DNA of 57,163 bases from positions 1 through 57,163 of the forward strand of contig SVPT01000001.1 in NCBI GenBank assembly GCA_015065695.1, given 5' to 3'. The DNA is from Oscillospiraceae bacterium. GTDB lineage: Bacteria; Bacillota; Clostridia; Oscillospirales; Acutalibacteraceae. Of this stretch, positions 21,948 to 43,155 are shown in pieces. How positions within the stretch are numbered: the first letter of the stretch is position 1; the number at the start of each line of letters is the position of its first letter. The notes under the pieces are model-generated. The model saw only the letters and a list, made by a program, of their open reading frames with translations, was not told the origin of the DNA and ran no database searches. Position numbers and translations under genes: made by a program.

Positions 21948-21989
21948 CGGAATATGCCCGCAGCGGGAAGAGATAATATACCCACTACA

Positions 21990-22706: not shown

Positions 22707-22717
22707 ACCTGATACTG

Positions 22718-22854
22718 CAAACAACGTCCCGCACCCACAAGGGTGCGGGACGTTTTCTTTTTTCTTTGCACCTCACCACAAAAACCGCCCAAAGCTTGCT
22801 ATTCCGCAAAAACGAATGTATTATTTCACTGGAACAACAAAGGAGGGCAAAACG
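22718..22854 (+). repeat. copy C of the cassette: hairpin, promoter and 5' UTR
   Basis: Hairpin at 22723-22752. TTGCTA (22796-22801), a 17-nt spacer, then TATTAT (22819-22824). Near-identical to 41645-41786. Confidence 0.8.
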
Positions 22855-25367: not shown

Positions 25368-25739
25368 TTAAAAGCAAGTGCCTTTTACGCACACACTTTC
25401 TAAAACTGCATTGAAAAAATACGAAAGCAAATAAGCGGCAGGGACGAGCTGATCGGGCTCGCCGTGCTCGCCTATGCGAAACACATTGGCGACGATCAGC
25501 TCGTCAATGGTGCAGCCATAAAGGACAGCCAGGAACTTGAAATGAGGCATTGAGAAAAGACCGCGCCCCGTTTCGGCCCTGATAATTGCCCTGCGAGACA
25601 TGAAGTCACGCGCATTGGTAAACACATCAGCAAGCTGCTGCTGTGTCATATGATGCGCAAGACGCATCTCGCGAAGGCGCTTACCGGTCGCCACCTGGTT
25701 GATTTCCACGTACCAATCAATGTTGGTGTGTATAGACAT
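25368..25739 (-). CDS. XRE-family HTH transcriptional regulator
   Basis: GKRLREMRLAHHMTQQQLADVFTNARDFMSRRAIIRAETG is an HTH_3-type helix-turn-helix. It is divergent from the 26131 operon and co-oriented with the array and cas6. Confidence 0.75.
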   Translation of the reverse strand: MSIHTNIDWYVEINQVATGKRLREMRLAHHMTQQQLADVFTNARDFMSRRAIIRAETGRGLFSMPHFKFLAVLYGCTIDELIVANVFRIGEHGEPDQLVPAAYLLSYFFNAVLESVCVKGTCF

Positions 25740-26130: not shown

Positions 26131-26448
26131 ATGATCAAATTGACAAAGCTGCGTTCGACCAAGGACAGAATCATTTGCGTAGGTGAGGTTGAAAATCTGA
26201 TCTTCTACTATAACCCGTTCCAGACCAGCGATCGCATATATCTCTTTGAAACCAAGGCGTTTTATGGCAGCGTGTTTGCGTACTTCAGAAAGATGGGTCG
26301 CAATATGCAGGCTCGTGGTTTTTCCCTGACCATAAAGGAGCTCTATGAGTTCTGCGACTACAACAATCCGAGACTGACCGGAATTATCCACCGCATCTTT
26401 ATCGTCCTGAAGAGCGTATTGAGCGATGAAAACGACCGTGCAGCGTAG
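26131..26448 (+). CDS. hypothetical small protein, paralogue A
   Basis: GGAGGG lies 8 nt before the ATG. It is about 45-50% identical by eye to the next gene (LRSTKDRIICV...F.YYxP....RI.LF..KAF...VF..FRKMGR....RG.SLTI.ELY.F...NPRL). Confidence 0.7.
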   Translation: MIKLTKLRSTKDRIICVGEVENLIFYYNPFQTSDRIYLFETKAFYGSVFAYFRKMGRNMQARGFSLTIKELYEFCDYNNPRLTGIIHRIFIVLKSVLSDENDRAA

Positions 26449-26556
26449 TAAAAACCCAAATGTGAAGCATAAGTGTACATACACAGAATCGTTGGTGTGG
26501 TAAACTGTCTACACTCCCCCTGCGGGGGTGAATAAAAGAATTGAGAGGAAAAGCTT

Positions 26557-26871
26557 ATGAAGAGACTGGACAATCTGAGATCGACCAAGGACCGCATCAT
26601 CTGCGTCAGCGAACCCAACACCCTTTGTTTCTACTACCAGCCCGTCGGCAGCGGCGAACGCATTTTCCTCTTTAGGAGCAAGGCGTTCAATGCCACCGTG
26701 TTCAATCACTTCCGCAAGATGGGGCGCCGCGCTCCTGAGCGGGGCTACTCTCTGACCATTGGCGAGCTTTATTCGTTCCGCAAGGACAACCCCAGACTGC
26801 TCCAGACTATCAACCATATCTTTCTCGTGCTGAGAAGTCTTCTTCAGGACGAAGATTGCCGCTCGGCATAG
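26557..26871 (+). CDS. hypothetical small protein, paralogue B
   Basis: Tandem paralogue of 26131..26448. GAGAGGAAAAG precedes the ATG. Confidence 0.7.
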   Translation: MKRLDNLRSTKDRIICVSEPNTLCFYYQPVGSGERIFLFRSKAFNATVFNHFRKMGRRAPERGYSLTIGELYSFRKDNPRLLQTINHIFLVLRSLLQDEDCRSA

Positions 26872-27010
26872 GCTGCAGCACGATGTACACCTCAGGGTGT
26901 ACATACACAACCCGAAAGGTGTGCTATTCTTAACACAGGTTGAGGCATCGCCCCAGTCAGCTTGTTGCCTGAGGCGATGCAAGGCTAATCAATTGACAAG
27001 GAGATGACCA

Positions 27011-27574
27011 ATGGTGACCAGCAGGTTTATCGGACTTATGCTTCTCCCCGGCTTTGTGTTTCGTTTGCTGGGGCGCCGCGATGGTAAGCACAGCCCCAAG
27101 ACTGTTCCTCTCCGCATGAGTGGGTTTGAGGAAAGATGCAGTATGCTGATAAATTGCGAAATGCTGCTTTCCGAGAAAAGAACCAGAGATGCCGTGCAAC
27201 AGACGGTGGACGCACTTTTCCTCTTCAAGGTGAGCAATGCCGGTGAACCGGCAGCAAACACCATTCGCCGCAGACTGCAGGCAGCTTCGGCACTGGGTGA
27301 TGCCCTTAAGCAGACCAGGCGGGAGAGGCGTCGTCTTACCTCTGTGGCAGACACGATCTTCCGCAAGTACAAGAGCATTGCGGCCCAGTATCTTGTCGGT
27401 GTCAGCCGTTTTACGGAAGATGCTCCCACCCTGTCCGAGTCGTCCTATTTCTCTGCCGAAGAGTATCTCTGCGAGGCCGAATGCGAGCGGCTTTTCGGAT
27501 TTATCGAGAAATCGGCATCGGCACTGCTCAATGTCCCCGAAGTAAGTGTTAAAGGTTATGAAAGGAGTGCATGA
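27011..27574 (+). CDS. hypothetical protein
   Basis: AAGGAG lies 7 nt before ATG 27011. The stop overlaps the next start (ATGA). No recognisable domain. Confidence 0.6.
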   Translation: MVTSRFIGLMLLPGFVFRLLGRRDGKHSPKTVPLRMSGFEERCSMLINCEMLLSEKRTRDAVQQTVDALFLFKVSNAGEPAANTIRRRLQAASALGDALKQTRRERRRLTSVADTIFRKYKSIAAQYLVGVSRFTEDAPTLSESSYFSAEEYLCEAECERLFGFIEKSASALLNVPEVSVKGYERSA

Positions 27575-27984
27575 CCATGACCAACCGCAATCAGCCCGAG
27601 ACCACCACCGAATACCGCAGCCTGTGTTCTCCTGAGGAGCTGCTGGCGGGTATCGGCAGCTACAGCTTCAGCCCGGAGTTTTCCGCAGTACTCAGTGACC
27701 CCGCCGCATTCTTCAAGAGGAAGATAACAGGCGTGCCCGTTGACCAGTTTTCCGGAGATATTCTTGATGGCATGATTTGTTGCCTTATCGACAGCGAAAT
27801 CGCTCGTCTTGAGGACCAGATCGCCAGCAATGCTCACGCTATTCAGACTGCAGAGACCGCTATCCCTGCCTACATCAGACGTGTTCATGATGAACTCGAT
27901 TGTCTGGTGGACTATGACCGATTAATTGAGGAGGAGCTTGTAGCTCTCAGTGTGCTTGAACGGGCACAGAAAGGGGTCAAGTAA
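27571..27984 (+). CDS. hypothetical protein (predicted helical/coiled)
   Basis: Translationally coupled on both sides (ATGA at 27571, TAATG at 27982-27986). No recognisable domain. Confidence 0.6.
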   Translation: MTMTNRNQPETTTEYRSLCSPEELLAGIGSYSFSPEFSAVLSDPAAFFKRKITGVPVDQFSGDILDGMICCLIDSEIARLEDQIASNAHAIQTAETAIPAYIRRVHDELDCLVDYDRLIEEELVALSVLERAQKGVK

Positions 27985-28871
27985 TGGAGAAGAACACCGT
28001 ACGCACACCGCTGCTCAGCAGCATCACAGCTCGCTGTGCGAAGCGCATCAAGCGGCTGTACACCGACAACGACCTGCTTCCCAACAGCCCTCTTGCGCAG
28101 GCCTGTCTTGCGGTGTTTGTTGCGATCGACAGCACCAGTCTCTATCACTACTATGCATTGTTTAACACCGGTATCTTCACCGTAATTTTAAGATGCATAG
28201 CCGGTGCAGCACTGCTTAATCTGCCGGCATCGATAGCTTGTACCAGCGTTGTCAACGCAAGAGCAGGCATAACCAACGGAACCAAAGTAAAGCGCCGTGT
28301 CATTGCAGCCGTGTTGAGCTTTATGCTGGTGTTTTTCCCCTACGCAAGCGTAACTATGCTCAAAGCCTTTGATGAGGGTGTCCTGTATAAGGCAGAGGAG
28401 GAGTACACAGACCACGAATCCGTATATGGAATCATTCCTGCCATCAATGTCAGCAATGAAACGAGTATGATTGAGCAGGAAGAGGAGCCGACCGGTGTTG
28501 ACCCCATTGAGCTGTTCGCTGCGATTGGTCTTGCTTTTTTCCCCCTTTGCACCACTCTCCTTTCGATGTTTGTTTCACTCGCCTGTACCAAACCACTTCA
28601 GGAGAGGCGCAGGAAACTGCTCACACTGCAGAAAGAGAATGCAGATGATGTAGCTCAGATAGAGCAGATACTTGTTGTGCAGAACGCCTGTCACGGCAAG
28701 CTTGAGGGCATAAGGGCTGCCGATAAAGCTGCAGCAGAGCATCAGCGTGCGCTGATACTGGCCGAGGGCGAGCGTCTCAAGCAGGAAGCCCGTATGTATA
28801 TCTCCCGCAGCAGTAAGAATCCTTCCGAGGTGAGCAACGTCCTTGCCGCCCTTGGTCTGACAACTAACTAA
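27984..28871 (+). CDS. hypothetical polytopic membrane protein with a C-terminal coiled-coil
   Basis: About four hydrophobic helices (for example VIAAVLSFMLVFFPYASVTML and LFAAIGLAFFPLCTTLLSMFVSLA), then a charged heptad-like tail (RRRKLLTLQKENADDVAQIEQ...). Confidence 0.6.
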   Translation: MEKNTVRTPLLSSITARCAKRIKRLYTDNDLLPNSPLAQACLAVFVAIDSTSLYHYYALFNTGIFTVILRCIAGAALLNLPASIACTSVVNARAGITNGTKVKRRVIAAVLSFMLVFFPYASVTMLKAFDEGVLYKAEEEYTDHESVYGIIPAINVSNETSMIEQEEEPTGVDPIELFAAIGLAFFPLCTTLLSMFVSLACTKPLQERRRKLLTLQKENADDVAQIEQILVVQNACHGKLEGIRAADKAAAEHQRALILAEGERLKQEARMYISRSSKNPSEVSNVLAALGLTTN

Positions 28872-28887
28872 TAGGAGGAAAACGCTC

Positions 28888-30150
28888 ATGATGACTAAGA
28901 AGAACGGTTTCATTGTCCGCTGCATCGCAGCAGCTATCTCCATGCTGCTGCTCACTGCGCCGCTGTGTGGCTGCGGTAAGGCAGAACCTCCCGTAGACGC
29001 ACTGTTTATCGCCGGAGGAATCACTTCTGGCAACACTGTAATCGATGAAGACATACTTACCCCCCTTCTTGAATCCGCTGCGGACAACCCCGGCGCAGCA
29101 ATCTGCGCCAGCACGGTTGATGGTGCCCCCGAGGTAGTATACAGTACCACCATTGCCAAGCCCGACAAGAAGTACGCAGCCAAGATCGCCAAGCAGGAGC
29201 GCAGCAAGCTTGTAAGGCGCATCAACGCCGGCATATCCGGCTGTGTTGCTGCTGTCCCCGAGGTTGACATGATGAACGTCCTCTATCTTGCCGAGGACTT
29301 CTTCGGCAGCTTCCACGAGGACAAGCGCAAGGTGCTGTTCATTCATCACAACGGGCTCTCCACCACCGGTCTTATCAGCTTTTCCACTCCCTATAAAGCA
29401 GATGACGTCATGCTCATTATTGATGTTCCTGCCGAAGAAGTGGTAAAAAATCTCGCTGATAACGACCTGCTGCCTGATCTGGCAGATGTTCAGGTTATCT
29501 GGTCCGGCTTTGGCAAGGCCACCGACAAGCAGAGCCCTTTCAGCCGCAACTACGCCGGGAAGCTCGAGTGCCTCTGGGACAGCATCCTGTCCGCAAGCGG
29601 TGCAACTGTTGATTTTATCACTGAGCCCAAGCCCAACGATTCCGTATCCTACAGCAACACAGAGATATTCGGTGATCTTGGTCTGCCCCGCGTCACTCCG
29701 GTTGTGATTCCTCCCGATGAGCTGGACAGCTTCCACGTTGACCTCTCCGAGAACGATGCCGACTGCGCAGTGCGCTTCAACCCCGGAGAGGACACATTCA
29801 TTGATGAGTCCAAGGCAGTGAAGGAGCTGCAGACCATAGCGGGCGAGATGCTCAGGCATGGGCAGTGTGAGTATGTAATCGCAGGCAGCACAGCCAGCTT
29901 TGGTGATGGTGACGGCAAGACCCTGGCTCACGCACGCGCACAGCGCTGTGCAGATGTACTCATCAAAGCCGGCGTACCGGCCGACAGCATTGTGGTCATT
30001 GGACTCGGTAAGCTCTCACACAGCAAGCGAGCAAGCGACGTTGACGCAAATGGCAGATTTGTCGAGGGCGAAGCAGCGGCGAAGAACAGAGCCGTCTACA
30101 TCTACCCGACTGATTCAGATTTTGGCAAGGAGGTTCTTGGCGTATGCTGA
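28888..30150 (+). CDS. lipoprotein with a C-terminal OmpA/MotB-like peptidoglycan-binding domain
   Basis: Lipobox ...MLLLTAPLCGCG. The C-terminus FNPGEDTFIDES...VIAGSTASFGDGDGKTLAHARAQRCADVLIKAGVPADSIVVIGLG...AKNRAVYIY follows the OmpA_C pattern. The ~300-aa N-terminal domain is unassigned. Confidence 0.65.
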   Translation: MMTKKNGFIVRCIAAAISMLLLTAPLCGCGKAEPPVDALFIAGGITSGNTVIDEDILTPLLESAADNPGAAICASTVDGAPEVVYSTTIAKPDKKYAAKIAKQERSKLVRRINAGISGCVAAVPEVDMMNVLYLAEDFFGSFHEDKRKVLFIHHNGLSTTGLISFSTPYKADDVMLIIDVPAEEVVKNLADNDLLPDLADVQVIWSGFGKATDKQSPFSRNYAGKLECLWDSILSASGATVDFITEPKPNDSVSYSNTEIFGDLGLPRVTPVVIPPDELDSFHVDLSENDADCAVRFNPGEDTFIDESKAVKELQTIAGEMLRHGQCEYVIAGSTASFGDGDGKTLAHARAQRCADVLIKAGVPADSIVVIGLGKLSHSKRASDVDANGRFVEGEAAAKNRAVYIYPTDSDFGKEVLGVC

Positions 30151-30209
30151 CAACGGTTATTTTGGGCGGTTTTATTGACATCATCAACAACATCATTGGA
30201 GGTCATTCT

Positions 30210-30863
30210 ATGAACATCTTCAACACTGCAGTAACCACCGAGCAGGCAACCAATCAGTTCCCCTCCACTGCATTCTCCATTATCTTCTGTGTGGTTGTCA
30301 TAGCCATTGTGGTGGCTGCATTCGGCAGAACCAAGCGCGGCAGGGATGTGTTCAGCAGCCTGTTCAGGAACAAGGCTCCGGTCAGGGAGGAGAGAACCCC
30401 CATTGCTGAACCCAGAAAAAAAGCCGTAGATACCGACAGAGAAAATGACCGTGGTGTGACTACCATAGCAGCCAAGTACACCTGTTCCCTTTATCTCGAT
30501 GGTATCAAGATTGCCTCCAAGGCAGTAACCCTCAGTCCTGAAAAGCCCTTCTTTATCGGCAGCGCCCGTGATGACCACCTTCGTGTTGATGAACCTACCG
30601 TTTCCCGCCATCATCTCGTGGTTGCAGTGGACACCGATGGCACTGACTTCATAAGAGACTACGGCCGTGATGGTCAGGGCTCTTCCAACGGCACGTGGTT
30701 TGGCGGTAGCTTCTACCGCAACGCCAGCTTTGATCTCGTCCTTGACGAGAAAATCTACCTCGGCGAAGAGGACGGGCACTACATCGTGTTCGAGCGCCGC
30801 AAACGTCAGCGCGACTGCCACAATTCCAGTGAACAGTCGGGGGCTGTACGCATCTCCCGCTAA
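30210..30863 (+). CDS. membrane-anchored FHA domain protein
   Basis: GGAGG lies 8 nt before ATG 30210 (alternative ATG 30144 overlaps the upstream stop). TM helix AFSIIFCVVVIAIVVAAF. FHA core: FFIGSARDDHLRVDEPTVSRHHLVVAVD....IRDYG...SSNGTWFGG. Confidence 0.8.
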   Translation: MNIFNTAVTTEQATNQFPSTAFSIIFCVVVIAIVVAAFGRTKRGRDVFSSLFRNKAPVREERTPIAEPRKKAVDTDRENDRGVTTIAAKYTCSLYLDGIKIASKAVTLSPEKPFFIGSARDDHLRVDEPTVSRHHLVVAVDTDGTDFIRDYGRDGQGSSNGTWFGGSFYRNASFDLVLDEKIYLGEEDGHYIVFERRKRQRDCHNSSEQSGAVRISR

Positions 30864-30884
30864 ACTGAAGGAGGTAAGAATATT

Positions 30885-32324
30885 ATGATGCTCAAGAGCG
30901 TTAACAGCCGCCCTGTTATCAAGGCTGCATTCATGTTCCTCGTTCTTACCGCAATACTCGGTATGCTGTGCTTCAGCAAGAGTGTTTCTGCTCAGGTCAA
31001 TTTCATGAATTCGTTGACGCCTCTGCTTATTGTCTCCGGTGCTGCGTTCTTATACACGGCATATACCGCAGGGGACCTGCTCCTTACCTTCTCGCTGACC
31101 TCCCTCAACGCAGTGGGCGTTGCTTTCCAGTGTATGCTGCCCAGCGATTTTGCCACCATTAAACAGGATATGGTCTCATACCCCCTGCTCTTTAGTGCCT
31201 TCTCTATTCTACTAATCTTCTGCTACGACATTTCCCAAGGAGGGGAGCGAATTCAGTACATTTTCGGCAAGCTGTGTTCCCCCCTTGGGCTGACAATCAT
31301 CGCAGGCACAATTGTCCTGTCTACTGTTATACTGCTTGTTTTTTCCCGTGGCGAGGATAACAAGTCTTGGCTCAGAATTCCGGGTGTCTTCCAGATTCAG
31401 CTCACAGAGGTCTTTAAGGTGCTTCTGGTTGTGTTCTTTGCTCTGCTCAGCAAAGCCAATCTGGATGCTCTCCCGCTCAAGCTGCTGCGCAGCCGCTTTG
31501 TGTGGGCAGAGGGCGTTCTTATACTGACCATTGGCTGCTTAGGTATACTTGGCGAGTATGGCAGCATTATCCTCATCACTGCATTGGCTGTTGGCATGAC
31601 TTACCTGACCTTTGAAAAGAAGCGATACGCTTTATATATGCTTGCGAGCATAATCGCACTGATTGGCGTTGGTTGGTTGCTCCTGAATATGTTCGGCAAT
31701 GCATATGCAAATGCTGTTGCAAACGGTCAGGAGACCGGCTCTTTGCTTAAGCGTATTGCTTCTGCAAATTCACGTCTTAACGAAAGGTTTGCTCTCTGGA
31801 CTAAAGGCATTGATGACCCGGCACTTGAAGAGGTTTCGGGCCAACTGAAAGATGCACGCAGAGCAGCTATCAAGGGTGGCCTTACCGGGAATGTACATCC
31901 GGTCTATGTGTTGTACGAAGAGTCCGATTACGCATTTATCGGATTGCTCGCTCGCTGCGGCATACTCGTTGGTGCAGCCGTAATGATGCTCTTTTCAATC
32001 GTGCTGCGCCAGGGACTTGTCATTGCGTCTGAGCAGACCGACAAGGCAGCATCAGCCATTGCGGCTGGCATGGCAATGAGCATCTCCTTTGGCTTCATTA
32101 TTAATGCCAGCAGCGCCAGTGGGCTAATCCCTTTAGCGGGCCTCGCTGCTCCCTTTATCTCCAGAGGCGGCAGCAATATGCTCATAACATATATCGCATC
32201 TTCGATTCTTATTTATCTCAGCGGTAACCGCAACAGTTTGTTACGCTCGGTGGTCGATGCCTTTAAGCAGCCCCAGGAAGCACCTCAGCCCAAAGCTGAG
32301 TCCATCAACAGAATAACCCGCTGA
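30885..32324 (+). CDS. SEDS-family peptidoglycan polymerase (FtsW/RodA/SpoVE-like)
   Basis: About 10 TM segments. The C-terminal block SGLIPLAGLAAPFISRGGSNMLITY matches the conserved SEDS motif (G..P..G...PF.SYGGS). Confidence 0.8.
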   Translation: MMLKSVNSRPVIKAAFMFLVLTAILGMLCFSKSVSAQVNFMNSLTPLLIVSGAAFLYTAYTAGDLLLTFSLTSLNAVGVAFQCMLPSDFATIKQDMVSYPLLFSAFSILLIFCYDISQGGERIQYIFGKLCSPLGLTIIAGTIVLSTVILLVFSRGEDNKSWLRIPGVFQIQLTEVFKVLLVVFFALLSKANLDALPLKLLRSRFVWAEGVLILTIGCLGILGEYGSIILITALAVGMTYLTFEKKRYALYMLASIIALIGVGWLLLNMFGNAYANAVANGQETGSLLKRIASANSRLNERFALWTKGIDDPALEEVSGQLKDARRAAIKGGLTGNVHPVYVLYEESDYAFIGLLARCGILVGAAVMMLFSIVLRQGLVIASEQTDKAASAIAAGMAMSISFGFIINASSASGLIPLAGLAAPFISRGGSNMLITYIASSILIYLSGNRNSLLRSVVDAFKQPQEAPQPKAESINRITR

Positions 32325-32338
32325 CAGGGAGGTATACC

Positions 32339-33703: not shown

Positions 33704-33726
33704 TAACGAATCAGGGGGACTGGCTG

Positions 33727-35742
33727 ATGAATACCAACAACGTAATCAAGGCAGCAAAGGCTATCATAGGCGAACACTTCCGTAGCGGTCTTTATGCGCA
33801 GCACCTTCCCGATTGGGTCAAGTACATCAATGTTGTGCGCACTCCGTTCAAAGAGTGCGGTCAGGCACAGATTTTTCTCATCAGGGGTGCAGGCAATAGA
33901 TTTTTCCTCAGGGCAGACAACGTCATGGTACTGAAGGTTTTCTCAGATGCCAATGAACAGCGTTGGATAGAAAGGGAACAGGCGATTCGGGGAAAGCTGA
34001 GAGATGATGAAGAGCTTCTTGCTCATCTTGTCCTGCCCATCGACAGCTTCGCGGTGTTCGATGACAGAAACCATATGCTGCATTGCCACGTTTACCTCTA
34101 CAAAACTCCTTTCTGCGATACAGTGGGCAACACTGATGAAGAGTGCGTCAGGGCTGCAATAAGGCTTAGCAGCCTGCTGCCCTGCCTGCACAGTCTGGCA
34201 GAGCTTCGTATCTTCAACAGGGACATCAAGAGAAGCAATCTGTATGCGGACCCCAAGAGCGGCTGTGTGATGATTGGTGACTGGTCGGTTTCCAACAACA
34301 CCCGAAATAATGCCACCCCCATCGGCACATTTCCTGAGATAGCACCCGAGGTAGTTGCCAGCTCTCCGGGCTGCGAAAACAACATCGCCAAGGCCGATCT
34401 CTACAGCCTGGCTATGACCATGATCTTCTACCTCAACGGCATGGAGTATCCGGATCACGACAGTGTGCTTGTTCCCCACAGCGAGGGCAAGATGCAGTTT
34501 CCCGAACCGAAGCTTGGTTGCTCCAGCCAGCTTAAACAGGCGGTTCTTCGTGCTGTTGAGCACAACCCGGAACGGCGTTATGATAACTGCCTTGAGTTTT
34601 ACGAGGCTGTGCGTCAGACACCTGAATATATGCTCTACGGCACCGAAGAAGGAAATGTTAGTTGCATTGAGGATTCGCCAGAATCTGTTGTGGAGAACAG
34701 CGAAATGCTCTGTGAAGCAGAAATCAAACTGGATGTTGATAACCTATCCGAGGATCAGCTTGAAGCAGTTGCCCAGCTTTACGCAAAAATCGCAAGAGGT
34801 CTCGACATTGAATGCGAGGAAGCAGAGCAGTGCAGTGATTCTCCTGCACTGCCCTCTCAGGAGGAATCCGTCATTGAGCAGGCAGAAAGCATTATTCCCG
34901 AGGGCTATGAGGAAGATGAGTGCTTTGACGTTTCCGAACTTTACCCTGAGCCCGCTAAGGAAGAGATAATTACTGAGGTAGAGGAAAGTGTTATTCCTGA
35001 GGGCTATGAGGAAGACAAGCACTTCGACGTTTCCGAGGCATATACCGAGCCCCCTGCCGAGCCCACCAGGCTTTACAACAGCTCCAAGGTGTACACAGGA
35101 CCCGGGCTCTATCCCGATGAGATGGAAGAGGACCTCTCCAACGCTTATACAGGCGAAAGCCTTGACATCACCGACTCGGCAGAGGTGGTTTGTGACCATT
35201 CGGCAGACTTCGCCGCGCTAAGAAGAACCATACGCAGCAGCGGGAAAAACGAACTGCTGTACAGCGGGGAAACCGTACCTCCTTCCGCTTTTTACCACAC
35301 TGCCCTCAAGAAAGCAGTGCTTAAAAACACTGTAACCATCGAGCGCAAGGCGTTCCGGGGCAGTGACATTCAGCACGTTGAGTTTGGCGAGAGGTTGGTG
35401 TCCATAGGCAGCGGGGCGTTTAACGGAACGCAGTTAAAGGAGGTCACCATGCCCGCTTCGCTGCAGCATATAGGCATGGGTGCATTCGCCTGCTGTGAGC
35501 ATCTTGCAACCCTGCGTCTTCCCTCCGGACTGCGCAGGATTGAACGCCGCGCATTTGCCTACTGCCCTTCGCTTAAGAGGCTTTATCTCCCCAAGGGCAT
35601 TGAATACATAGCACCCGATGCCTTTGCAGGAACCGAAATTCACATCTATTCGCCGGAGAATCCCATCAAATACTGGCAGCAGAAGCTGCCAGACAACATC
35701 ACATGGCACAAGCTTATTGAAAAACAAGGAGGCGCGGCATGA
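33727..35742 (+). CDS. Hanks-type Ser/Thr kinase fused to BspA-type LRRs (no TM segment)
   Basis: VLKV (candidate catalytic Lys), FNRDIKRSN (HRD-box variant), IGDWS (DFG variant), PEIAPEV (APE). An acidic linker contains a 33-aa duplication. The C-terminus has xIGxxAFxxCxxLxxL LRR_5 repeats. Confidence 0.75.
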   Translation: MNTNNVIKAAKAIIGEHFRSGLYAQHLPDWVKYINVVRTPFKECGQAQIFLIRGAGNRFFLRADNVMVLKVFSDANEQRWIEREQAIRGKLRDDEELLAHLVLPIDSFAVFDDRNHMLHCHVYLYKTPFCDTVGNTDEECVRAAIRLSSLLPCLHSLAELRIFNRDIKRSNLYADPKSGCVMIGDWSVSNNTRNNATPIGTFPEIAPEVVASSPGCENNIAKADLYSLAMTMIFYLNGMEYPDHDSVLVPHSEGKMQFPEPKLGCSSQLKQAVLRAVEHNPERRYDNCLEFYEAVRQTPEYMLYGTEEGNVSCIEDSPESVVENSEMLCEAEIKLDVDNLSEDQLEAVAQLYAKIARGLDIECEEAEQCSDSPALPSQEESVIEQAESIIPEGYEEDECFDVSELYPEPAKEEIITEVEESVIPEGYEEDKHFDVSEAYTEPPAEPTRLYNSSKVYTGPGLYPDEMEEDLSNAYTGESLDITDSAEVVCDHSADFAALRRTIRSSGKNELLYSGETVPPSAFYHTALKKAVLKNTVTIERKAFRGSDIQHVEFGERLVSIGSGAFNGTQLKEVTMPASLQHIGMGAFACCEHLATLRLPSGLRRIERRAFAYCPSLKRLYLPKGIEYIAPDAFAGTEIHIYSPENPIKYWQQKLPDNITWHKLIEKQGGAA

Positions 35743-36482
35743 CCATTTCCATAACCGCACTGACAGCAAAAGGTGCAAGAGCAAACAATCAGGACGCACT
35801 TCTTCTGGGAAACCATGTAATAACGGCGGGCGAGCACCCGTTTCTGATGACGGGTTGTATTGTGCAGTCCGACCCGCGGATTTCCGTGTTTGCTGTGGCA
35901 GACGGGGCTGGCGGCAACGAGGCAGGCGAGGTTGCCTCGGAGGCGGCACTGCGTTTGCTTGCCGCTGAAAGCTTTGCTGACATCAACGACTTCCGCGAAA
36001 AGGTGGACGAATGCTTTGAACGTATGCAGACGGCTGTGGAAGAGGCCCTGGGAAGCCGTTGGGGTGGCTCAACCATCAGTGTTCTCGCCATGGGTGAAGG
36101 GCAGTATGTCTGCGCAAACCTCGGCGACAGTCCTGTGTACAAAGCAAACTCCGGCAGACTCAATCTGATTTCCGAGATTCATACCGAGGCAGAGGAGAAG
36201 CTGATGGCAGGTGTCAGAAAGAAAGACATAACCGAACAGGAACGCCATAGTCTGACCCGATGCCTTGGCAGTGCAGGGTACGATATACCTTCGTTCAGTT
36301 CGGGTGTGTTTGCGCAGGGAGATGTATTTGTGCTTTGCTCAGACGGCTTTGCAGAAAGATTCCCCAAAAACAGGCTTCTGCGCGAGCTGCACAGACCGTC
36401 ACCCAAACTCTTTTCGCCGAATACCTATGCTGCCACCGATGACAACTGCAGCGCAATAATAATCTTCACAGGCAAGGCGTAA
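35739..36482 (+). CDS. PP2C-family Ser/Thr phosphatase
   Basis: KGARANNQDALL, VFAVADGAGGNEAGEVASE and LCSDGF motifs. The start overlaps the kinase stop (ATGA), preceded by AAGGAGG. Confidence 0.85.
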   Translation: MTISITALTAKGARANNQDALLLGNHVITAGEHPFLMTGCIVQSDPRISVFAVADGAGGNEAGEVASEAALRLLAAESFADINDFREKVDECFERMQTAVEEALGSRWGGSTISVLAMGEGQYVCANLGDSPVYKANSGRLNLISEIHTEAEEKLMAGVRKKDITEQERHSLTRCLGSAGYDIPSFSSGVFAQGDVFVLCSDGFAERFPKNRLLRELHRPSPKLFSPNTYAATDDNCSAIIIFTGKA

Positions 36483-36502
36483 TAGCCGATGGAGAATCCG
36501 GT

Positions 36503-37980
36503 ATGAATAAGCGTTTGCTCAAAAGAGCCATGAGGAAGTACATTGCAGCCTGCCGCAGTGAGAGCGAATTTCGCAGGCTGTACGACCCCGACCTGATGCC
36601 CTACAGCAGATTCATAAAGAGCAGAGATGCCCGATGGTGCAGGTTATTCTTTAACTATCGGGTGGGTACAGATGAGGAGATAGCGGCGATAACAGGGATT
36701 GCCGGAGCAGATTTGTACAGATCTGCTCCGTGCAGCCGCCATGACTGCGTCGCGCTCGCCTATGCTTTTCGGCTTACCACAAGGCAGACCAATCATCTGC
36801 TGAACACCTGCGGTTTTGGCAGGCTGAGAAAAAGCTGTGCAGACGATGCAGTATATATGCAGCTATTGAAAAGCCGCGCCGAGGACGAGGGTCAGTCAGA
36901 AAGTTTTGATGCAGCCTTCTGCCGCTTGCGCAGGGAATATGAGGAAAGCGTGCAGGCAGACTCCATACCCGTGTTCATGGGGCGCAGTACCGTTATTTGT
37001 GCAGAGAAAGCCATTGCTGCCATGAAAAAGTATGGTGCTGAGGTACAATACCTGCCTGCCAGAGAACAGATGATTTTCAGTCTGGCGGCATACGGAGCAG
37101 ACATTGACCGAATTAACAGTGTATTGCGCATTGCGGCACAGGAACCGCTGAATCCATATTGCGCAGAGGAGGCACGCCTGTTGTTTGAGTTAAGCAGGCG
37201 TGGTCAGTCGCAAGCACAGCACAGCGAAGATGGAATACCCATGAACAAAAATGATGATTTAAGGGCAAGCGCCTTTTGTGTTTGCGTTCCAGGGCAGAGA
37301 CACCTGACACATAGACAGCAGTGTCAGGACCGTGCAGTTACAGCCGCCTTTGATGGCGGGGCAATGGCAGTGCTTTCCGATGGAGCAGGCTCGTCACAAT
37401 ACAGCCAGTTTGCGGCAGAAGCCAACACCCAGACGGCGGCACAGTTCTTCCGCACACACGATATTGATGAATGGATAACGCAATCCGAAGAACAGATGGC
37501 AGAGGATATTGCCTTTGTGACGGGTGGGGCCTGTCGGGAGCAGGCAGACCTGCTAAGGGTCAGGCCTGAGCTGATGTCGGCAACCCTTGTCGGCGCGGTT
37601 GTCGCTTACAAAAAAAGACAGATTGTCATATTCCACACAGGCGATGGCGAGTGTGGGCACAGTATGCGGACGGTACAGCACAGCAAGTGTCTGCACCTGA
37701 AGGCCTTGGCAGAAGCACCTACTTTACCGTGTCCCAAAGCAGCAGACATACACGGATAAAAAAGCTGGACGCTGACAACATTGTGAGCTTGCTGCTGGTG
37801 ACAGACGGTGTTGCTGAGGGTTTGGGAAGCGCAAAGCAAGGATTTATGGGCTCTGTTCTGGACAAGACTGCAAAGGGGGAGATTTACGACAGCATATCAC
37901 TGGAGCAATTTATTGAAAACGGTCAGCAGGACGACCACACGGCAGCAATACTGACACTGCAAGGAGGAAAAACACGATGA
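36503..37980 (+). pseudogene. second PP2C-like (PP2C_2-type) protein gene, split by a 1-nt frameshift near 37649-37651
   Basis: ORF 36503..37759 contains QCQDRAVTAAFDGGAMAVLSDGAGSSQYSQFAAE. ORF 37651..37980 continues the fold (LLLVTDGVAEGL) in another frame. The downstream gene is coupled (ATGA) to the stop of the second frame. Confidence 0.6.
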
Positions 37981-38396
37981 CTGATACCAAAGCGTTTGAG
38001 AGTATTCTTGACAAAGAAAATGTAAAATACCGCAGTTTCAACCTGGCAGAGGGGAAGTTGTTCTTCTGCAGCGCAGAGGACGGTCTGACCTTCGATGCAT
38101 TCTGGGGCACAAACGGCGTATTGCGCATTTGGCGGTACGTTCTGACAAACCTGCCACTGGGGGTAAGGGGAAAATGCTTCCGAAGCAGTGTGCCCAACAG
38201 AGAGAACGCATTTGTTCGTCTGGAAATTACCGATGATGGCTGCCTGAATCTGACAGCAGAACAGCAGTTGACCGATGTGTCACAGGTTGGAGAACACATG
38301 GAAAAGCATTTATCAGGGTTCATTTCGTCAATAAGGCAGATTGATTTTCGCAGTATAATCAAGCCACTGGCTTTAGCAAAGGAGTCCAACGCATGA
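37977..38396 (+). CDS. hypothetical protein (possibly YbjN/chaperone-like; weak)
   Basis: GGAGGA lies before the ATG, which overlaps the upstream stop. A 139-aa alpha/beta-looking protein. The YbjN-like idea is an impression only. Confidence 0.55.
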   Translation: MTDTKAFESILDKENVKYRSFNLAEGKLFFCSAEDGLTFDAFWGTNGVLRIWRYVLTNLPLGVRGKCFRSSVPNRENAFVRLEITDDGCLNLTAEQQLTDVSQVGEHMEKHLSGFISSIRQIDFRSIIKPLALAKESNA

Positions 38397-38563
38397 AGAA
38401 ATCAGCACACGAAAGATTTATTGAAAGTCTGTATATTCCTCAGAAAGCAACACCCAGACCAACGGTTGTGCCGAAGGGAAACGACGCAGAGCGCAGAGAG
38501 ATGGTTGAGGAACTGAACAAAATTTTTGATGAGCTTTTTGGCGATAGCGAAGATGATGAGTGA
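38393..38563 (+). CDS. small acidic-tailed protein (56 aa, not listed in the ORF track)
   Basis: The ATG overlaps the upstream stop as ATGA. My translation: MKKSAHERFIESLYIPQKATPRPTVVPKGNDAERREMVEELNKIFDELFGDSEDDE. Confidence 0.45.
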   Translation: MKKSAHERFIESLYIPQKATPRPTVVPKGNDAERREMVEELNKIFDELFGDSEDDE

Positions 38564-38814
38564 TGGGAGAGTGGAATAAAGCAGCTCCGGCGCAGCGCAT
38601 ATTCCTGCTTGCCGGCTGCGGGAAAACAGCGTAAATATCTCTCTTTTCGGGCGAGTGCAAGGCAACGGTTGAGGTGTATTAAGCCAAGATAACTCCAGCT
38701 TTTCTCTACCAAGGGCAAATGTTACCTTAAGGGGCACTTTCTTCTATTCCATTTCGTGGTAATATGTCCATGCAATTAAGGCATTTTGGGTTAATGATTT
38801 GTGGAGGGTTGCTT

Positions 38815-39636
38815 ATGGCAGAGAGAAGTGTGTTTCTGATCAAGAACTGTTACCCCTTTTACGAGGAGGTAATCGTACCGTTTCCGTGGTTTGGCGGCTT
38901 TGCGCTCGCTCAGAAACAGCGCAATGCGTTGTCTCTGAAGATGAACCTTGAGGCAGCTTGCCCGCAGTACAATGTGTGTGAGATTTCCTCCGGTTCACTT
39001 GACCCTGTGGGCAGGTCACTCAGTGCAATGTCGCTGAGCAAGCGCATGAGCGATGGCACTGTTGTTGTAATGGAATCGGCATTCCAGTCGTCGCGGATAT
39101 ACTGCGTGCCGCAGACGGGTGAGGTGATTGGACCTTTCCCCGAGCTGCTGGGGCTTGATGGAAGAGCCTGCAAGAAGACAGTGAAGGAGGCATCGTGCGG
39201 CTTGCATAGCTGCGAGTATATGTTTGATGGAATGTCTTTCCCGACCCCGGATTTCCATCCCTCGCTCTTTTATGATTATCTTTACATCAATGCGTTGATG
39301 GAGCCGGAGAATGCTGAGGTGGCAGAGAACCTTCGCAGGAGCGGCTACAATGCTTTTTCTGATCTTGCGACAAAGTCACTCAACACGCAGGCACGAAGCT
39401 GTGCGATTTATCTGAGTCTTTGCGAAAACGGGCTGCTTGAGCAGGCGGCTGATTACGACAGCTTCATGAAGCTTTTTCGCGTTGACCTGACCGCACCGAA
39501 CTATGCAGCCACGGGTGCGTATGAAGATGTGCCGATGTCAGATGCGCAAAGCGGCTGCCGCAGACGGGTGTCAGCTAGGTTTTCAGAATGCGAGGTGAAA
39601 CAGAGATATGATGAACTGCGGAGAGTTCTTGTTTGA
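38815..39636 (+). CDS. hypothetical protein (273 aa, no domain recognised)
   Basis: GGAGGG lies 7 nt before ATG 38815. A 250-bp gap upstream holds an extended -10-like TGGTAATAT. Notable blocks are PFPWFGGFALAQKQRNALSL and PSLFYDYLYINAL. Confidence 0.65.
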   Translation: MAERSVFLIKNCYPFYEEVIVPFPWFGGFALAQKQRNALSLKMNLEAACPQYNVCEISSGSLDPVGRSLSAMSLSKRMSDGTVVVMESAFQSSRIYCVPQTGEVIGPFPELLGLDGRACKKTVKEASCGLHSCEYMFDGMSFPTPDFHPSLFYDYLYINALMEPENAEVAENLRRSGYNAFSDLATKSLNTQARSCAIYLSLCENGLLEQAADYDSFMKLFRVDLTAPNYAATGAYEDVPMSDAQSGCRRRVSARFSECEVKQRYDELRRVLV

Positions 39637-39678
39637 AGATGAGGAACAGATGATGTGATTTTACAGGAGGAAGAAAAT

Positions 39679-40257
39679 ATGCAGATTATTGTCAAGTCCT
39701 GCCACGGTATCAGCGTAGTGCCTCTGGAAAGCCGCTTGCTGGCGGACAGAAAAATCTACCTTCAGGGAGAAATAACCGATGCCTCTGCCTGTGATTTTGA
39801 GCAGAAAATTGATTATCTGCTCAGTGAGGATCCTGAGAAAGAAATAAATCTGTACATAAACTCACCCGGGGGGGTGGTTACAGGTGGTCTCCATATCTAT
39901 GACATTGTAAAAAGCATCAACGCTCCCCTGAATATGTGGTGCCGTGGTATGGCAGCGTCCATGGCGGCCATCATCTTTGCCGGCGGACAGAATGGGCGGC
40001 GGTTTATCCTGCCCCACTCCAAGGTGATGATACACGAGCCGCTCATACAGGGGGGAATCGGCGGCAGTGCATCGTCTATACACCGCACTGCCGAAAGCAT
40101 TATGGAGACCAGAAAGCTGACCATTGAACTGCTGGCTGCCGATACGGGCAAGTCCAGATTGGCGGTGGAAAAGGCAATCGCCTTTGATAACTACATGAAT
40201 GCACAGGAAGCGGTTGAGTTCGGTATTGCCGATAAGGTAGTCGGCTCGCTCAGATAA
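39679..40257 (+). CDS. clpP: ClpP-family serine protease paralogue
   Basis: INSPGGVVTGGLHIYD, GMAASMAA (catalytic Ser), VMIHEP (His) and FDNYMNAQEA (Asp region). The full triad appears intact. AGGAGG precedes the ATG. Confidence 0.85.
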   Translation: MQIIVKSCHGISVVPLESRLLADRKIYLQGEITDASACDFEQKIDYLLSEDPEKEINLYINSPGGVVTGGLHIYDIVKSINAPLNMWCRGMAASMAAIIFAGGQNGRRFILPHSKVMIHEPLIQGGIGGSASSIHRTAESIMETRKLTIELLAADTGKSRLAVEKAIAFDNYMNAQEAVEFGIADKVVGSLR

Positions 40258-40275
40258 ATTTGTGGAGGGACGTAT

Positions 40276-41523
40276 ATGGATAAAATAATACTCGGTCAGG
40301 GCGAAGTTATAGAAGATGGTCTTGGAACCATCAGACCCAACGATAATGTTGCGGTTTTTGGCGGTACCGGCTCCGGAAAGTCCATGAGTGTGCTGATTCC
40401 CACCCTGTGCCATGTTGAGGACAGCAGCATTCTGGCTACATACGCCAAGCGCGAGATCGTAAACACTGCGCTGAGTCACTTCAAAAGCAAGGGGTACAAG
40501 GGCTATGTGTGGAATCTCTCCAACCCCTCCGAGGGTGATGTTCTTCCTGACCCGATTTATTACATTGCCTCTGACAACGACGTTCAGGAGATAGCCAAAC
40601 AGATTGCCCGTGGCAACCCCGAGTATCAGCGTGCAACAAAATTCGACCCCTATTGGAGGGACGCCTCCGAAAGTCTTATCACCGGTCTTATCTACTATGT
40701 ACTGATGACTGAGAAAGAGCCCAGCATGAAAAAGGTCATTGACCTGTTCTATTCGATGAAGATAACCGAGGACGGAAAGGGCATCAGAACGACGCTTGAC
40801 CCTATCTTCGATAAGCTTGAGGCGAAAAAGCCCGACTGCGTTGCGGTGAGGAAGTTTTTCTCCTATCGTCAGCTCCCTTATGTCACAGCAGGCTGCGTCA
40901 GGGACGATTTGGAAAAAGCGATACAGAATATGTTCCCGCTCAGTGTGCAGGAGGCAATGAGCGCAGACGGTTATGTGGATTTTGAGGATTTTGCTTCCGA
41001 GCGAACAGCCATCTTCATTCTGACAAGCCCCGTCAACAGCACCCAGTATTGCTTTGCAAATCTCCTCTTCGGCATTGCGATACGCCAGCTCATGCAGTTT
41101 GCGGAAAGCCGTAAAGATGGTCGTTTGCCCCGCCCTGTGCGGCTTTTATTCGATGACTTCAGCTGTGGCTTCCCTGTAGCGAACTACGAAAAGTCGATTT
41201 CTACATTTCGTGCAGCCGGTATAAGTAGCATGATGCTGTGCCAGTCGATCTCCCAGTTAGACGCAACCTATGGTGAGGCCAATGCCATTACTATTATGGA
41301 TAACTGCTCTGCCATGGTGTATCTCCCGGGCGGTATGAATATCAAGTCAGCGCGATATTTCAGCGAGATGGCAAATCTCCCGCTGGATGAGATACTGTTC
41401 ATGGAGGTGGGAAACGCGGTGATTTTCCAAGCAGGTCAGAAGCCGAAGATAGTTCCCCGTTACGACACCCTGCATGACCCGAAGTACCTCACATTCATGC
41501 AGGCAGACGGAAACAGCAGGTAG
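40276..41523 (+). CDS. VirD4/TraG-like coupling-protein ATPase lacking the N-terminal TM domain
   Basis: Walker A FGGTGSGKSMSVLIPTL, Walker B-like VRLLFDDF, and the T4CP signature MLCQSISQLDATYG. Only 415 aa with no hydrophobic N-terminus. Confidence 0.7.
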   Translation: MDKIILGQGEVIEDGLGTIRPNDNVAVFGGTGSGKSMSVLIPTLCHVEDSSILATYAKREIVNTALSHFKSKGYKGYVWNLSNPSEGDVLPDPIYYIASDNDVQEIAKQIARGNPEYQRATKFDPYWRDASESLITGLIYYVLMTEKEPSMKKVIDLFYSMKITEDGKGIRTTLDPIFDKLEAKKPDCVAVRKFFSYRQLPYVTAGCVRDDLEKAIQNMFPLSVQEAMSADGYVDFEDFASERTAIFILTSPVNSTQYCFANLLFGIAIRQLMQFAESRKDGRLPRPVRLLFDDFSCGFPVANYEKSISTFRAAGISSMMLCQSISQLDATYGEANAITIMDNCSAMVYLPGGMNIKSARYFSEMANLPLDEILFMEVGNAVIFQAGQKPKIVPRYDTLHDPKYLTFMQADGNSR

Positions 41524-41644: not shown

Positions 41645-41786
41645 TTCGTTTGCAACGTTCCGCACCCACAAGGGTGCGGGACGTTTTCTTTTTTCTTTGC
41701 ACCCTACCACAAAAAACCGCCCAAAGCTTGCTATTCCGCAAAAACGAATGTATTATTTCACTGGAACAACAAAGGAGGGCAAAACG
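41645..41786 (+). repeat. copy D of the cassette: hairpin, promoter and 5' UTR
   Basis: TTCGTTTGCAACGTTCCGCACCC-ACAA-GGGTGCGGGACGT plus a T-run. TTGCTA (41728-41733), a 17-nt spacer, then TATTAT (41751-41756). Confidence 0.8.
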
Positions 41787-43112: not shown

Positions 43113-43155
43113 CGGAATATGCCCGCAGCAACTTTCCTCATCTCAATAACCTCCA

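Follow-up and report, generated by a model that had tools for sequence, protein, structure and literature searches.

A 57,163-nt stretch of contig SVPT01000001.1 from an Oscillospiraceae bacterium (assembly GCA_015065695.1; hereafter the window) carries a tightly packed block of 17 plus-strand genes (26131-41523), an operon that forms the cargo of a rare mobile island and is not a housekeeping locus. The block is composite: it comprises an envelope cassette, a cluster specifying FhaB-, RodA- and PbpA-like proteins together with a kinase and a PP2C phosphatase, a PP2C_2 gene followed by two small genes, a NADAR gene, and genes for ClpP and a VirD4-like ATPase. An earlier note on this DNA had envisaged a single self-contained module for envelope remodelling, sensing or conflict. 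The idea of a single system gave way to a composite one, because the cassette occurs elsewhere without SEDS or penicillin-binding protein (PBP) genes, the NADAR gene is an indel and the ClpP-ATPase pair is deleted in a related contig; a function in envelope remodelling, sensing or conflict remains plausible for the block. We tentatively read the block, with rather less than even confidence, as a mobile-element module for envelope remodelling that would be gated by phosphorylation. What may be new is a mobile, re-wired, kinase-controlled cluster of SEDS and class B PBP (bPBP) genes joined to the cassette, which may itself be a new kind of system.

A divergent SEDS-bPBP pair with its own phosphorylation apparatus

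Five consecutive plus-strand genes (30144-36482) form the centre of the block. The first (30144-30863) encodes a membrane-anchored, FhaB/FipA-like protein with a transmembrane (TM) segment at residues 37-65 and a forkhead-associated (FHA) domain at residues 138-193 (Pfam FHA, E 8e-7), in which reading of the sequence finds the phosphothreonine-binding residues R, SRxH and NGT retained. It is followed by the gene for a highly divergent SEDS glycosyltransferase of the FtsW/RodA type (30885-32324; Pfam 85 bits), whose ESDYAF segment aligns to the catalytic Asp context HTDFVF of an FtsW chain in the PDB, and whose PFISRGGS segment aligns to PFLSYGGS. The third product (32339-33703) is a short class B PBP of the PbpA type, 454 aa long, which consists of a TM anchor and a transpeptidase domain (Pfam Transpeptidase, E 1e-31), carries the motifs SDIK, SCN and KTG, and has no PBP_dimer domain in Pfam. 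Its top PDB relatives are PBPs of 453-482 aa (E 1e-19) and Mycobacterium tuberculosis PBPA. The scores against the FtsW, RodA and PBP2 equivalog families are about one quarter of the cut-offs (91 bits against a cut-off of 337 for SEDS with NCBIfam ftsW, and 127 against 455 for the bPBP), and hence neither protein is a housekeeping copy.

The fourth gene (33727-35742) encodes a soluble Hanks-type Ser/Thr kinase (Pfam Pkinase and LRR_5) with the motifs VLK, NRDIKRSN, GDW and APE, an acidic repeat linker and C-terminal BspA-type leucine-rich repeats (LRRs). Neither a TM segment nor a PASTA or extracellular domain is present in the kinase; the LRR_5 region at its C-terminus also matches LRR structures in the PDB. 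The earlier description of a kinase with cytoplasmic LRRs in place of TM and PASTA domains is thus borne out. Within the linker (window 34900-35200) there are two copies of a roughly 30-residue acidic repeat, ESxIPEGYEEDxxFDVSExYxEP. The last of the five genes (35739-36482) encodes a soluble PP2C phosphatase of 247 aa that matches both Pfam PP2C_2 and PP2C and has DGxGG, SDG and DDN motifs; at 86% amino acid identity to its orthologue in contig L001, described below, it is the best-conserved gene of the block. Every catalytic motif that can be read from these sequences is intact.

The actinobacterial fhaA-fhaB-pstP-rodA-pbpA-pknA-pknB cluster likewise gathers in one operon a TM-anchored FHA protein, a SEDS protein with its catalytic Asp, a short PbpA-type PBP (SxxK, SxN, KTG), a Hanks kinase and a PP2C phosphatase. 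The likeness noticed before is therefore real, and the five-gene set is, as judged from its sequences, homologous to actinobacterial fhaB-rodA-pbpA-pknB-pstP and predicted to work like it. In mycobacteria, the Hanks kinases PknA and PknB phosphorylate and control PBPA and FipA (reviewed in PMC6213207). Several differences separate the two clusters. The window PP2C stands last in the order and is soluble, there is neither an FhaA nor a second kinase, the kinase is soluble with BspA-type LRRs instead of TM and PASTA domains, and the proteins are extremely divergent, being encoded on a mobile island of a Firmicute and joined to an unrelated cassette. The window block thus lacks two defining features of the actinobacterial cluster, the PASTA receptor kinase and core synteny.

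The block is an accessory and horizontally mobile unit

The window contains recA (5931-7136, minus strand), together with prmC and a response regulator gene. Its RecA is 74-77% identical to RecA of Acutalibacteraceae and Oscillospiraceae metagenome-assembled genomes, which identifies the host, an uncultured gut bacterium, as a monoderm Clostridium of the order Oscillospirales. Three metagenome contigs (L001-L003) bear a lipoprotein 81% identical to that of the window block; an exact look-up of the window lipoprotein as translated gave no match. In a word-indexed search of 5.8 billion proteins, the lipoprotein had only six relatives and the SEDS protein only three matches at E<1e-10.

The gene order of the three contigs is the same: a helix-turn-helix (HTH) gene on the minus strand, genes for proteins of 103, 186, 135 and 298 aa, and then lipoprotein, FHA, SEDS, PBP, LRR-kinase, PP2C, an intact PP2C_2 of 505 aa, and proteins of 139 and 61 aa. 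Between the window (26539-38559) and L001, DNA identity is 78% over about 12 kb, and a third lineage (L087) keeps the gene order up to the end of its contig at 51-69% protein identity. The flanks of the block, by comparison, are unrelated in the window and L001. In the latter, the left flank has genes for a TetR regulator, a hydrolase, a ParB_N protein and a large serine recombinase, and the right flank a Cas10-palm-like gene (L001 19862-20596). This last gene lies 3' of the block in L001-L003, begins MVLAKYDIRGIQSYIF and has a faint precomputed match to the Cas10-Cmr2 palm; it may encode a minimal CRISPR-polymerase-like cyclase.

A pattern scan of 185,579 GTDB species genomes, sensitive to close relatives only, did not find the block, nor did pattern scans of IMG/VR and the JGI metagenomes. 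The sole JGI match (L105) was rejected as a copy, as it consists of an ordinary PBP with no other block gene. The unrelated flanks, the recombinase adjoining the block in L001 and the absence from the GTDB, IMG/VR and JGI pattern scans together indicate that the block is accessory and horizontally mobile, in agreement with the earlier view that it is not a core division cluster. That note had regarded a syntenic position in all relatives, as their only such cluster, as evidence for a core locus, and neither the flanks nor the GTDB scan revealed synteny of this kind. Repeated LRR-gene units flank the island on both sides in the window, with direct repeats of at least 300 nt at 22029, 22753 and 41685 (85-93% identity).

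Organization of the plus-strand operon

An open reading frame (ORF) scan confirmed the 17 co-directional, closely packed plus-strand genes that had been counted between 26131 and 41523. Starts overlap the preceding stops as ATGA at 27571, 35739 and 38393, as TAATG at 27984 and by 7 nt at 30144, as listed before, and the ATGA proposed at 37977 fits once the frame of the PP2C_2 gene is restored (see below). These overlaps suggest translational coupling within the block, and nearly all of its starts are preceded by a GGAGG-like Shine-Dalgarno site. The interval 38564-38814, formerly given as the only sizeable gap, is accompanied by gaps of 108 and 139 nt located 3' of two tandem paralogues (26131 and 26557). 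A T-tailed terminator hairpin with a 14-bp stem (stem-loop 41654-41685, within 41645-41708, plus strand) ends the operon; it is part of a 64-nt element repeated ahead of each neighbouring LRR gene. The right limit drawn for the block therefore holds, while on the left the conserved unit reaches beyond the proposed limit to an HTH gene and a CRISPR mini-array.

Pfam agrees with the domains that had been named in the block, with matches to OmpA_C, FHA, SEDS, Transpeptidase, Pkinase with LRR_5, PP2C, PP2C_2, ClpP and T4SS-DNA_transf/TraG-D_C. The products of the genes starting at 26131, 26557, 27011, 27571, 27984, 37977 and 38393 have no family match in Pfam, NCBIfam, PHROGs or PADLOC, and scans of the window for Rfam families and tRNAs gave no match. 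Comparison with the orthologous block of L001 yields dN/dS values of 0.07-0.36 for all 13 comparable genes, the small unassigned ones included, which identifies them as real coding genes.

The operon opens with two tandem paralogues encoding basic proteins of 105 aa (26131-26448) and 104 aa (26557-26871), which are 56% identical to each other (dN/dS 0.24) and are replaced by a single copy in L001; the second is 74% identical to this 103-aa L001 protein (dN/dS 0.17). The start of the first paralogue was set by the repeat shared between the two genes (26131/26557), and a longer form starting at 26068 (126 aa) has no Pfam family match either.

A recurrent four-gene envelope cassette

Upstream of the FHA gene, and on the same strand, lie four genes (27011-30150) that make up the envelope cassette. 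Protein A (27011-27574; 187 aa, dN/dS 0.11) is basic, helical and soluble, with an N-terminal LPGFxxRxxGxRDxK motif that it has in common with a 211-aa protein encoded at the same position in two other loci (L107 and L106), to which it also shows a weak profile match. Protein B (27571-27984; 137 aa) is acidic and soluble with a helical or coiled-coil C-terminus and is related to a family of 139/140-aa proteins in L107 and L088 (hhalign probability 88%, E 3e-6); a phmmer comparison in this family (e140 against a135) gave E 9e-6. Protein C (27984-28871; 295 aa) has four TM helices, an invariant Asp49 in the first of them and a cytoplasmic C-terminal helix of about 70 residues. Its profile found 12 clusters, every one of which adjoins a lipoprotein gene where looked up, and the four-TM proteins of different cassette types match one another by phmmer. 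An AlphaFold2 model of protein C, computed from a 12-sequence alignment, reached a pLDDT of 54 and was set aside for the fold search.

Protein D (28888-30150; 420 aa) is a lipoprotein with an invariant lipobox Cys29, an alpha/beta N-terminal domain and an OmpA-like C-terminal domain (Pfam OmpA_C). In its AlphaFold2 model (mean pLDDT 68), Foldseek matches the C-domain to the OmpA-like domains of YfiB, MotB, OmpA and TagL (E ~1e-6), and the predicted structure thus confirms an OmpA-like C-domain of the peptidoglycan-binding kind. An exhaustive profile search with the N-domain (window 28978-29637) found 1,859 clusters, defined at 50% identity, at E<=1e-3 and 1,140 at E<=1e-10. Members of this family are nearly all about 400 aa long; among 74 sampled sequences, 72 have OmpA_C and none has a Pfam match on the N-domain. 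The only source name seen for the family, in one cluster, was "OmpA family protein [Frisingicoccus sp.]". Its consensus includes the motifs TPEVDTL, DSGLSTTG and AIPDL, and Thr159 and Gln215 are invariant in the 74-sequence sample. A PDB profile search with the N-domain gave nothing significant (top match GerBC, E 0.46). Foldseek aligned it with TFIIH chain E, which we take to be the vWA-containing p44 subunit, at E 3e-5 but with a TM-score of only about 0.24, a weak vWA-like match; the DxSxS (MIDAS) motif is not present in the N-domain, where the family consensus reads DSGLSTTG and the window HHNGLS. DSGLSTTG was rejected as an SGNH/GDSL-hydrolase motif, as its Ser varies (it is N in the window and in the FtsK/HerA cassette type described below) and no His is conserved. 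A MotB/ZorB-like identity of the lipoprotein was likewise rejected, on account of its invariant lipobox Cys and the lack of a TM Asp.

As a unit, the cassette is separable and recurs on other Clostridial elements, where SEDS and PBP genes are missing. In L088, genes for 140- and 313-aa proteins and the lipoprotein are followed by a PP2C_2 gene. In L107, the order is 211, 139, 303 aa and lipoprotein, then a Metallophos gene and further genes including NADAR and an SNF2 helicase, with a Pkinase gene and a Sel1 gene upstream of the cassette. A phosphatase or kinase gene thus stands beside the cassette in three independent variants (the window, L088 and L107). In L089, the lipoprotein gene precedes genes for a 103-aa protein and a 389-aa protein with an HEHQH motif. 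Two unrelated variants have a NADAR gene close to the cassette, of family PF08719 in L107 (13939-14424) and of PF22397 in the window, which hints at more than chance cargo.

A commoner cassette type (L004 and L090-L098) has on one strand genes for proteins of 172, 198, 149 and 299 aa, the lipoprotein, an SprT-like protein, an M50 peptidase and a resolvase, with a divergent gene for a soluble FtsK/HerA-family ATPase that has no TM segment, and TIR-STAND or TIR-Sel1 genes at both flanks. Profile comparison found no link between its 172-, 198- and 149-aa genes and the 104-, 187- and 137-aa genes of the window. Only the four-TM protein and the lipoprotein are demonstrably common to the two types by sequence comparison. 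This element, about 12 kb long, is recurrent in gut metagenomes, and the cluster of its four-TM protein has 93 member sequences. It also encodes a Zn-ribbon membrane protein, an HEHEH zincin and an SprT/Tox-MPTase3-like protein, and its TIR-STAND and TIR-Sel1 ends are interchangeable.

Furthermore, Rhodococcus and Nocardia plasmids (L099, L100 and L101) encode full-length homologues of the lipoprotein at 26-35% identity, with genes for four-TM/coiled-coil proteins (hhalign E 6e-4) nearby, as well as for two conserved products about 240 and 300 aa long. On two Rhodococcus plasmids, several TPR genes and a CHAT gene surround the cassette homologues; on the Nocardia plasmid the cassette genes are co-directional, and the region fetched contains a single TPR gene and lacks CHAT. 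The lipoprotein family and its partner genes thus form a mobile-element cassette recurring in two phyla, which provides a handle on an uncharacterised envelope system of gut Clostridia.

A divergent arm with a regulator, a CRISPR mini-array and cas6b

The island is composed of two divergent arms, with the 17-gene operon on the plus strand and an HTH gene, a CRISPR array and cas6b on the minus strand. The Xre-type HTH regulator (25368-25739, minus strand; PHROG transcriptional repressor, E 2e-8) has an orthologue in L001 with 58% amino acid identity and a Pfam HTH_3 match, and its gene is syntenic with the block in L001 and L002. Next to it lies a CRISPR mini-array (24830-25189, minus strand) of six 29-nt repeats (GTATCCATCCCCTATAGGGGTTAGCGTAG) and five spacers of 36-41 nt. 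The arrays of L001 (5326-5870) and L002 (1688-2232) occupy the same position beside the HTH gene and contain nine repeats of the homologous sequence GTATCAATCCCTTATATAGGTTAATGTAG and eight spacers, all of which differ from those of the window. The array, which the earlier note had correctly located but taken for a mere neighbour, is therefore part of the conserved unit.

In the window, as in L001 and L002, a degenerate repeat occupies the array end distal to the HTH gene. Together with a promoter on the other side, this end suggests that the array is read on the minus strand. The segment 25193-25367 (minus strand) is a putative leader, as we infer from its sigma-70-like promoter (TTGCCA-17-TATAAT, 25241-25213), which has 11 of 12 consensus matches and an extended TG. 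A cas6 gene of the Cas6b type is located 3' of the mini-array (23952-24662, minus strand; Pfam Cas_Cas6_C, E 2e-23; PADLOC Cas6b, E 6e-54, full length). It is found in the window only, the L001 array having no adjacent cas gene, and is the sole cas gene among the ORFs scanned with Pfam or PADLOC, in which cas1, cas2, cas3, cas7, cas10 and others were not found. No protospacer for the array was found among GenBank phages, PLSDB or IMG/VR, and the repeat itself was not found in IMG/VR. The array resembles the solitary mini CRISPR arrays of mobile elements, which are likewise short, accompanied by cas6 only or by no cas gene, and have spacers that turn over; it differs from them in having no target match in these searches.

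The downstream genes are partly variable

The gene after the central cluster (36503-37980, plus strand) encodes a second phosphatase, with an unassigned N-terminal domain of about 250 aa and a PP2C_2 domain. It is disrupted in the window, where its ORF ends at 37759 following a 1-nt deletion at about 37651 (GGCGA-GTGTGGG, against GGTGAGGTGTGGG in L001, whose 505-aa orthologue is intact). The gene may truly be a pseudogene, or the assembly may be in error here. The restored frame reaches 37980, which explains the ATGA overlap at 37977 and shows that an apparent 217-nt gap is not intergenic. The two small plus-strand genes that follow encode a 139-aa protein (37977-38396), 76% identical to its L001 orthologue (dN/dS 0.36), and a 56-aa peptide with an acidic C-terminus (38393-38563), whose L001 orthologue has 61 aa (dN/dS 0.22); neither has a family match, and both are conserved together with PP2C_2 and the block.

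The 273-aa product of 38815-39636 (plus strand), previously left unassigned, is a NADAR protein of the DarT1-associated type (Pfam PF22397, E 5e-47, 211 of 212 profile positions). Its gene is an indel, the intergenic region of L001 having no similarity to it. The match is as expected for a DarT1-NADAR toxin-antitoxin system, from which the window differs in that the NADAR gene lies inside an operon and has no DarT1 toxin gene beside it: the two preceding genes (37977-38396 and 38393-38563) have no Pfam match, and the gene on the 3' side is that of ClpP.

The last two plus-strand genes encode a ClpP-family serine protease (39679-40257; Pfam CLP_protease, E 6e-53) and a VirD4-like coupling-protein ATPase (40276-41523; Pfam T4SS-DNA_transf, E 5e-36, and TraG-D_C). 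Sequence reading places an intact Ser-His-Asp triad of ClpP in GMAASMAA, MIHEP and AFDNYM, and the L001 alignment and a Shine-Dalgarno site make ATG 39679 the most likely start, rather than 39655. The ATPase is soluble, has a Walker A motif (GGTGSGKS), scores 199 bits against the NCBIfam family 'VirD4-like, CD1115 family' (cut-off 250) and is 25-28% identical to type IV coupling proteins (T4CPs) of Gram-positive plasmids. In L001-L003, a deletion has left the 5' part of clpP fused to the 3'-terminal 137 nt of the ATPase gene, and the pairing of the two genes was not seen in four more distant T4CP loci.

Relationship to other known systems

We compared the block with further systems that it resembles in part. 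Gram-positive T4CPs of the CD1115 family share with the window ATPase the soluble VirD4-like architecture, the Walker motifs and the TraG-D_C region. The window ATPase differs from them in scoring below the family cut-off, in having ClpP as its neighbour and in the lack of any accompanying gene of a type IV secretion system (T4SS): no VirB4, relaxase, VirB6/VirB8-like part or wall hydrolase was found by Pfam, NCBIfam or PHROGs in the 17 genes or their immediate flanks. Coupling proteins without a TM segment, such as TraJ of pIP501, are known in Gram-positive T4SS. The absence of a TM segment from the ATPase, pointed out earlier, is thus upheld, and the match to the CD1115 family, below the cut-off as it is, makes it less unusual.

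The type VI secretion system (T6SS) genes for PpkA, PppA and Fha1, together with TagL, offer another parallel, in that genes for a Hanks kinase, a PP2C phosphatase and an FHA protein accompany those of an envelope machine anchored to peptidoglycan by an OmpA-like domain. The T6SS is controlled by a Thr-phosphorylation switch (reviewed in PMC6213207). In contrast, none of the 17 block products matches a T6SS component in Pfam or PADLOC, the host is monoderm, and the anchor is a lipoprotein with an extra N-domain. The cassette also recalls ZorA/ZorB of Zorya, which pair a multi-TM protein having a cytoplasmic helical tail with an OmpA-like wall-binding partner in defence-type surroundings. It differs in that the window has a lipoprotein as its wall-binding partner and that the invariant TM Asp resides in the four-TM protein and not in this partner. 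In addition, neither 27984-28871, 28888-30150 nor any other block gene has a PADLOC match to ZorA, ZorB, ZorC or ZorD. The tail of ZorA is far longer than the tail of about 70 residues in the window four-TM protein.

PADLOC v2 detected no full system and returned only generic kinase (PD-T4-6, 39 bits) and PP2C (PDC-M21C, 39 bits) matches, and no account of a mobile cluster of this kind emerged from literature searches. That the combination matches no known system in PADLOC, Pfam, NCBIfam or PHROGs is consistent with its having gone unrecognised in the first inspection.

Proposed function and alternative explanations

In the module that we tentatively propose, the cassette would form a wall-anchored, membrane-spanning complex, and the cytoplasmic LRR domain of the kinase would bind a protein ligand, upon which the kinase would phosphorylate threonines of its envelope partners. 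The FHA protein would then read these marks and recruit or activate the SEDS-bPBP pair at the site marked by the cassette, leading to local synthesis of new peptidoglycan, and the PP2C enzymes would reset the switch. ClpP and the VirD4-like ATPase, presumably hexameric, would represent a separable output or a legacy module, and NADAR an added cargo. The likely purpose would be a conflict or exclusion function serving the mobile element or its host. Such a role is weakly suggested by the company of TIR-LRR, STAND, CRISPR/cas6b, Cas10-palm, CHAT/TPR and NADAR genes and by the kinases and phosphatases beside the cassette.

SEDS-bPBP pairs and their Hanks-kinase, FHA and PP2C controllers are regarded as core machinery of growth and division. 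If the proposal is correct, a complete, intact and selectively maintained SEDS-bPBP set on a mobile island, with a cytoplasmic LRR sensor on its kinase, would imply that peptidoglycan synthesis can be traded horizontally and could act as an accessory, signal-triggered function, for instance in the exclusion of phages or rival elements or in drug tolerance. A broader version, which we regard as rather unlikely, would make the cassette the core of an undescribed class of envelope systems on mobile elements of Firmicutes and Actinobacteria that signal through Ser/Thr kinases and phosphatases to interchangeable outputs, the output here being a private SEDS-bPBP pair and inducible wall building serving as immunity or exclusion.

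Several observations weigh against the proposed module. The cassette is joined to SEDS and bPBP genes in one lineage only (the window, L001-L003 and L087), only about five independent contexts of it were seen, none of its components has a characterised homologue, and the N-domain of its lipoprotein has no confident structural match. In addition, the frameshift of the second PP2C gene in the window and the deletion of the ClpP-ATPase pair in the L001 lineage indicate that parts of the island may be decaying or dispensable. Defence-gene neighbours are expected with any mobile-element cargo, which makes guilt by association a weak argument, and the searches described above found no protospacer for the array.

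These same signs of instability would also be expected, as would the cassettes without SEDS or PBP genes and the NADAR indel, if unrelated modules had accumulated by chance in a variable region and were transcribed together while functioning independently and in part decaying. We consider this unlikely, given that 13 genes keep their order, overlaps and purifying selection across a divergence of 22% in DNA and, in L087, of about 35-50% in protein, that the stop/start overlaps suggest translational coupling, and that phosphatases or kinases adjoin the cassette in three independent variants. Alternatively, the block might be a remnant or variant of a Gram-positive transfer apparatus. A channel for DNA or protein would then be built from the wall-anchored lipoprotein, the four-TM protein and the VirD4-like ATPase, whose place would be taken by the FtsK/HerA-like ATPase in the commoner cassette type, with the SEDS-bPBP pair repairing or shaping the wall where mating takes place. 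The CD1115-type ATPase has relatives on conjugative Gram-positive plasmids, the commoner cassette type always occurs with an FtsK/HerA-family ATPase and a resolvase, cassette homologues reside on relaxase-bearing Rhodococcus and Nocardia plasmids, a serine recombinase and ParB_N adjoin the block in L001, and OmpA-like lipoproteins such as DotK are found in some type IV systems. This explanation is nonetheless improbable: neither VirB4 nor a relaxase, a VirB6/VirB8-like protein or a wall hydrolase could be recognised among the island's genes, L001-L003 have lost ClpP and the T4CP with the rest of the block intact, ClpP is not beside the T4CP in the four more distant loci, and the FtsK/HerA-like ATPase is without a TM segment. 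Moreover, known conjugation systems use wall hydrolases, not synthases.

A mobile cassette for tolerance of wall antibiotics, carried by a serine-recombinase element and comparable to mecA on SCCmec or to enterococcal PBP5 with IreK/IreP, would place an extra low-affinity transpeptidase with its own SEDS protein under kinase and phosphatase control. The second-tier matches of the PBP to PBP5, PBP4(5) and PBP2a/MecA fit this idea, as do the large serine recombinase adjoining the block in L001 and the kinase-phosphatase-PBP theme known from cell-wall stress responses (PMC6213207). The top matches of the PBP, in contrast, are of the PbpA and pbp2/MrdA types and not MecA/PBP5, all of them far under the family cut-offs; a MecR1/BlaR-like sensor is missing, the kinase is devoid of PASTA and extracellular domains, and the cassette, ClpP, the T4CP and the array are left unexplained, all of which makes this account very unlikely. 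The least probable explanation, to which we give hardly any credence, is that the block is the core rodA/pbpA/pknB locus for elongation or division of the bacterium. Its content of FHA, SEDS, bPBP, Hanks kinase and PP2C does fit the conserved actinobacterial cluster, but its flanks vary by lineage, a recombinase and a CRISPR array adjoin it, the pattern scan did not find it in GTDB species representatives, the kinase has neither TM nor PASTA domains, and the FtsW, RodA and PBP2 equivalog scores are extremely low, with three close SEDS relatives among the 5.8 billion proteins.

The surrounding region

Paralogous LRR genes of the BspA type form an array on both sides of the island (window 19235-23766 and 41645-43129). 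Their products have no signal peptides, and that of one gene (19320-21947) begins with a fused TIR domain. Ahead of every LRR gene stand the 64-nt terminator-like hairpin and a conserved leader. Over 300 nt, the copy at 22753 is 93% identical to that at 41685, and 21814-21964 and 42979-43129 match at 97%.

The right flank (43313-45463 and 48491-51361) encodes a 716-aa protein with 16 Sel1 repeats as well as transglutaminase-core, SUFU-like and DUF3916 proteins. Proteins of the SUFU-like and DUF3916 families have been reported to confer immunity in polymorphic toxin systems, and the island thus sits in a broader variable region of the conflict type. Farther to the left, a 704-aa ORF on the minus strand (2890-5004) has no Pfam match; over 37 residues, its N-terminal stretch shows 49% identity to the TIR domain in the TIR-Sel1 protein from L004, a contig with the commoner cassette type.

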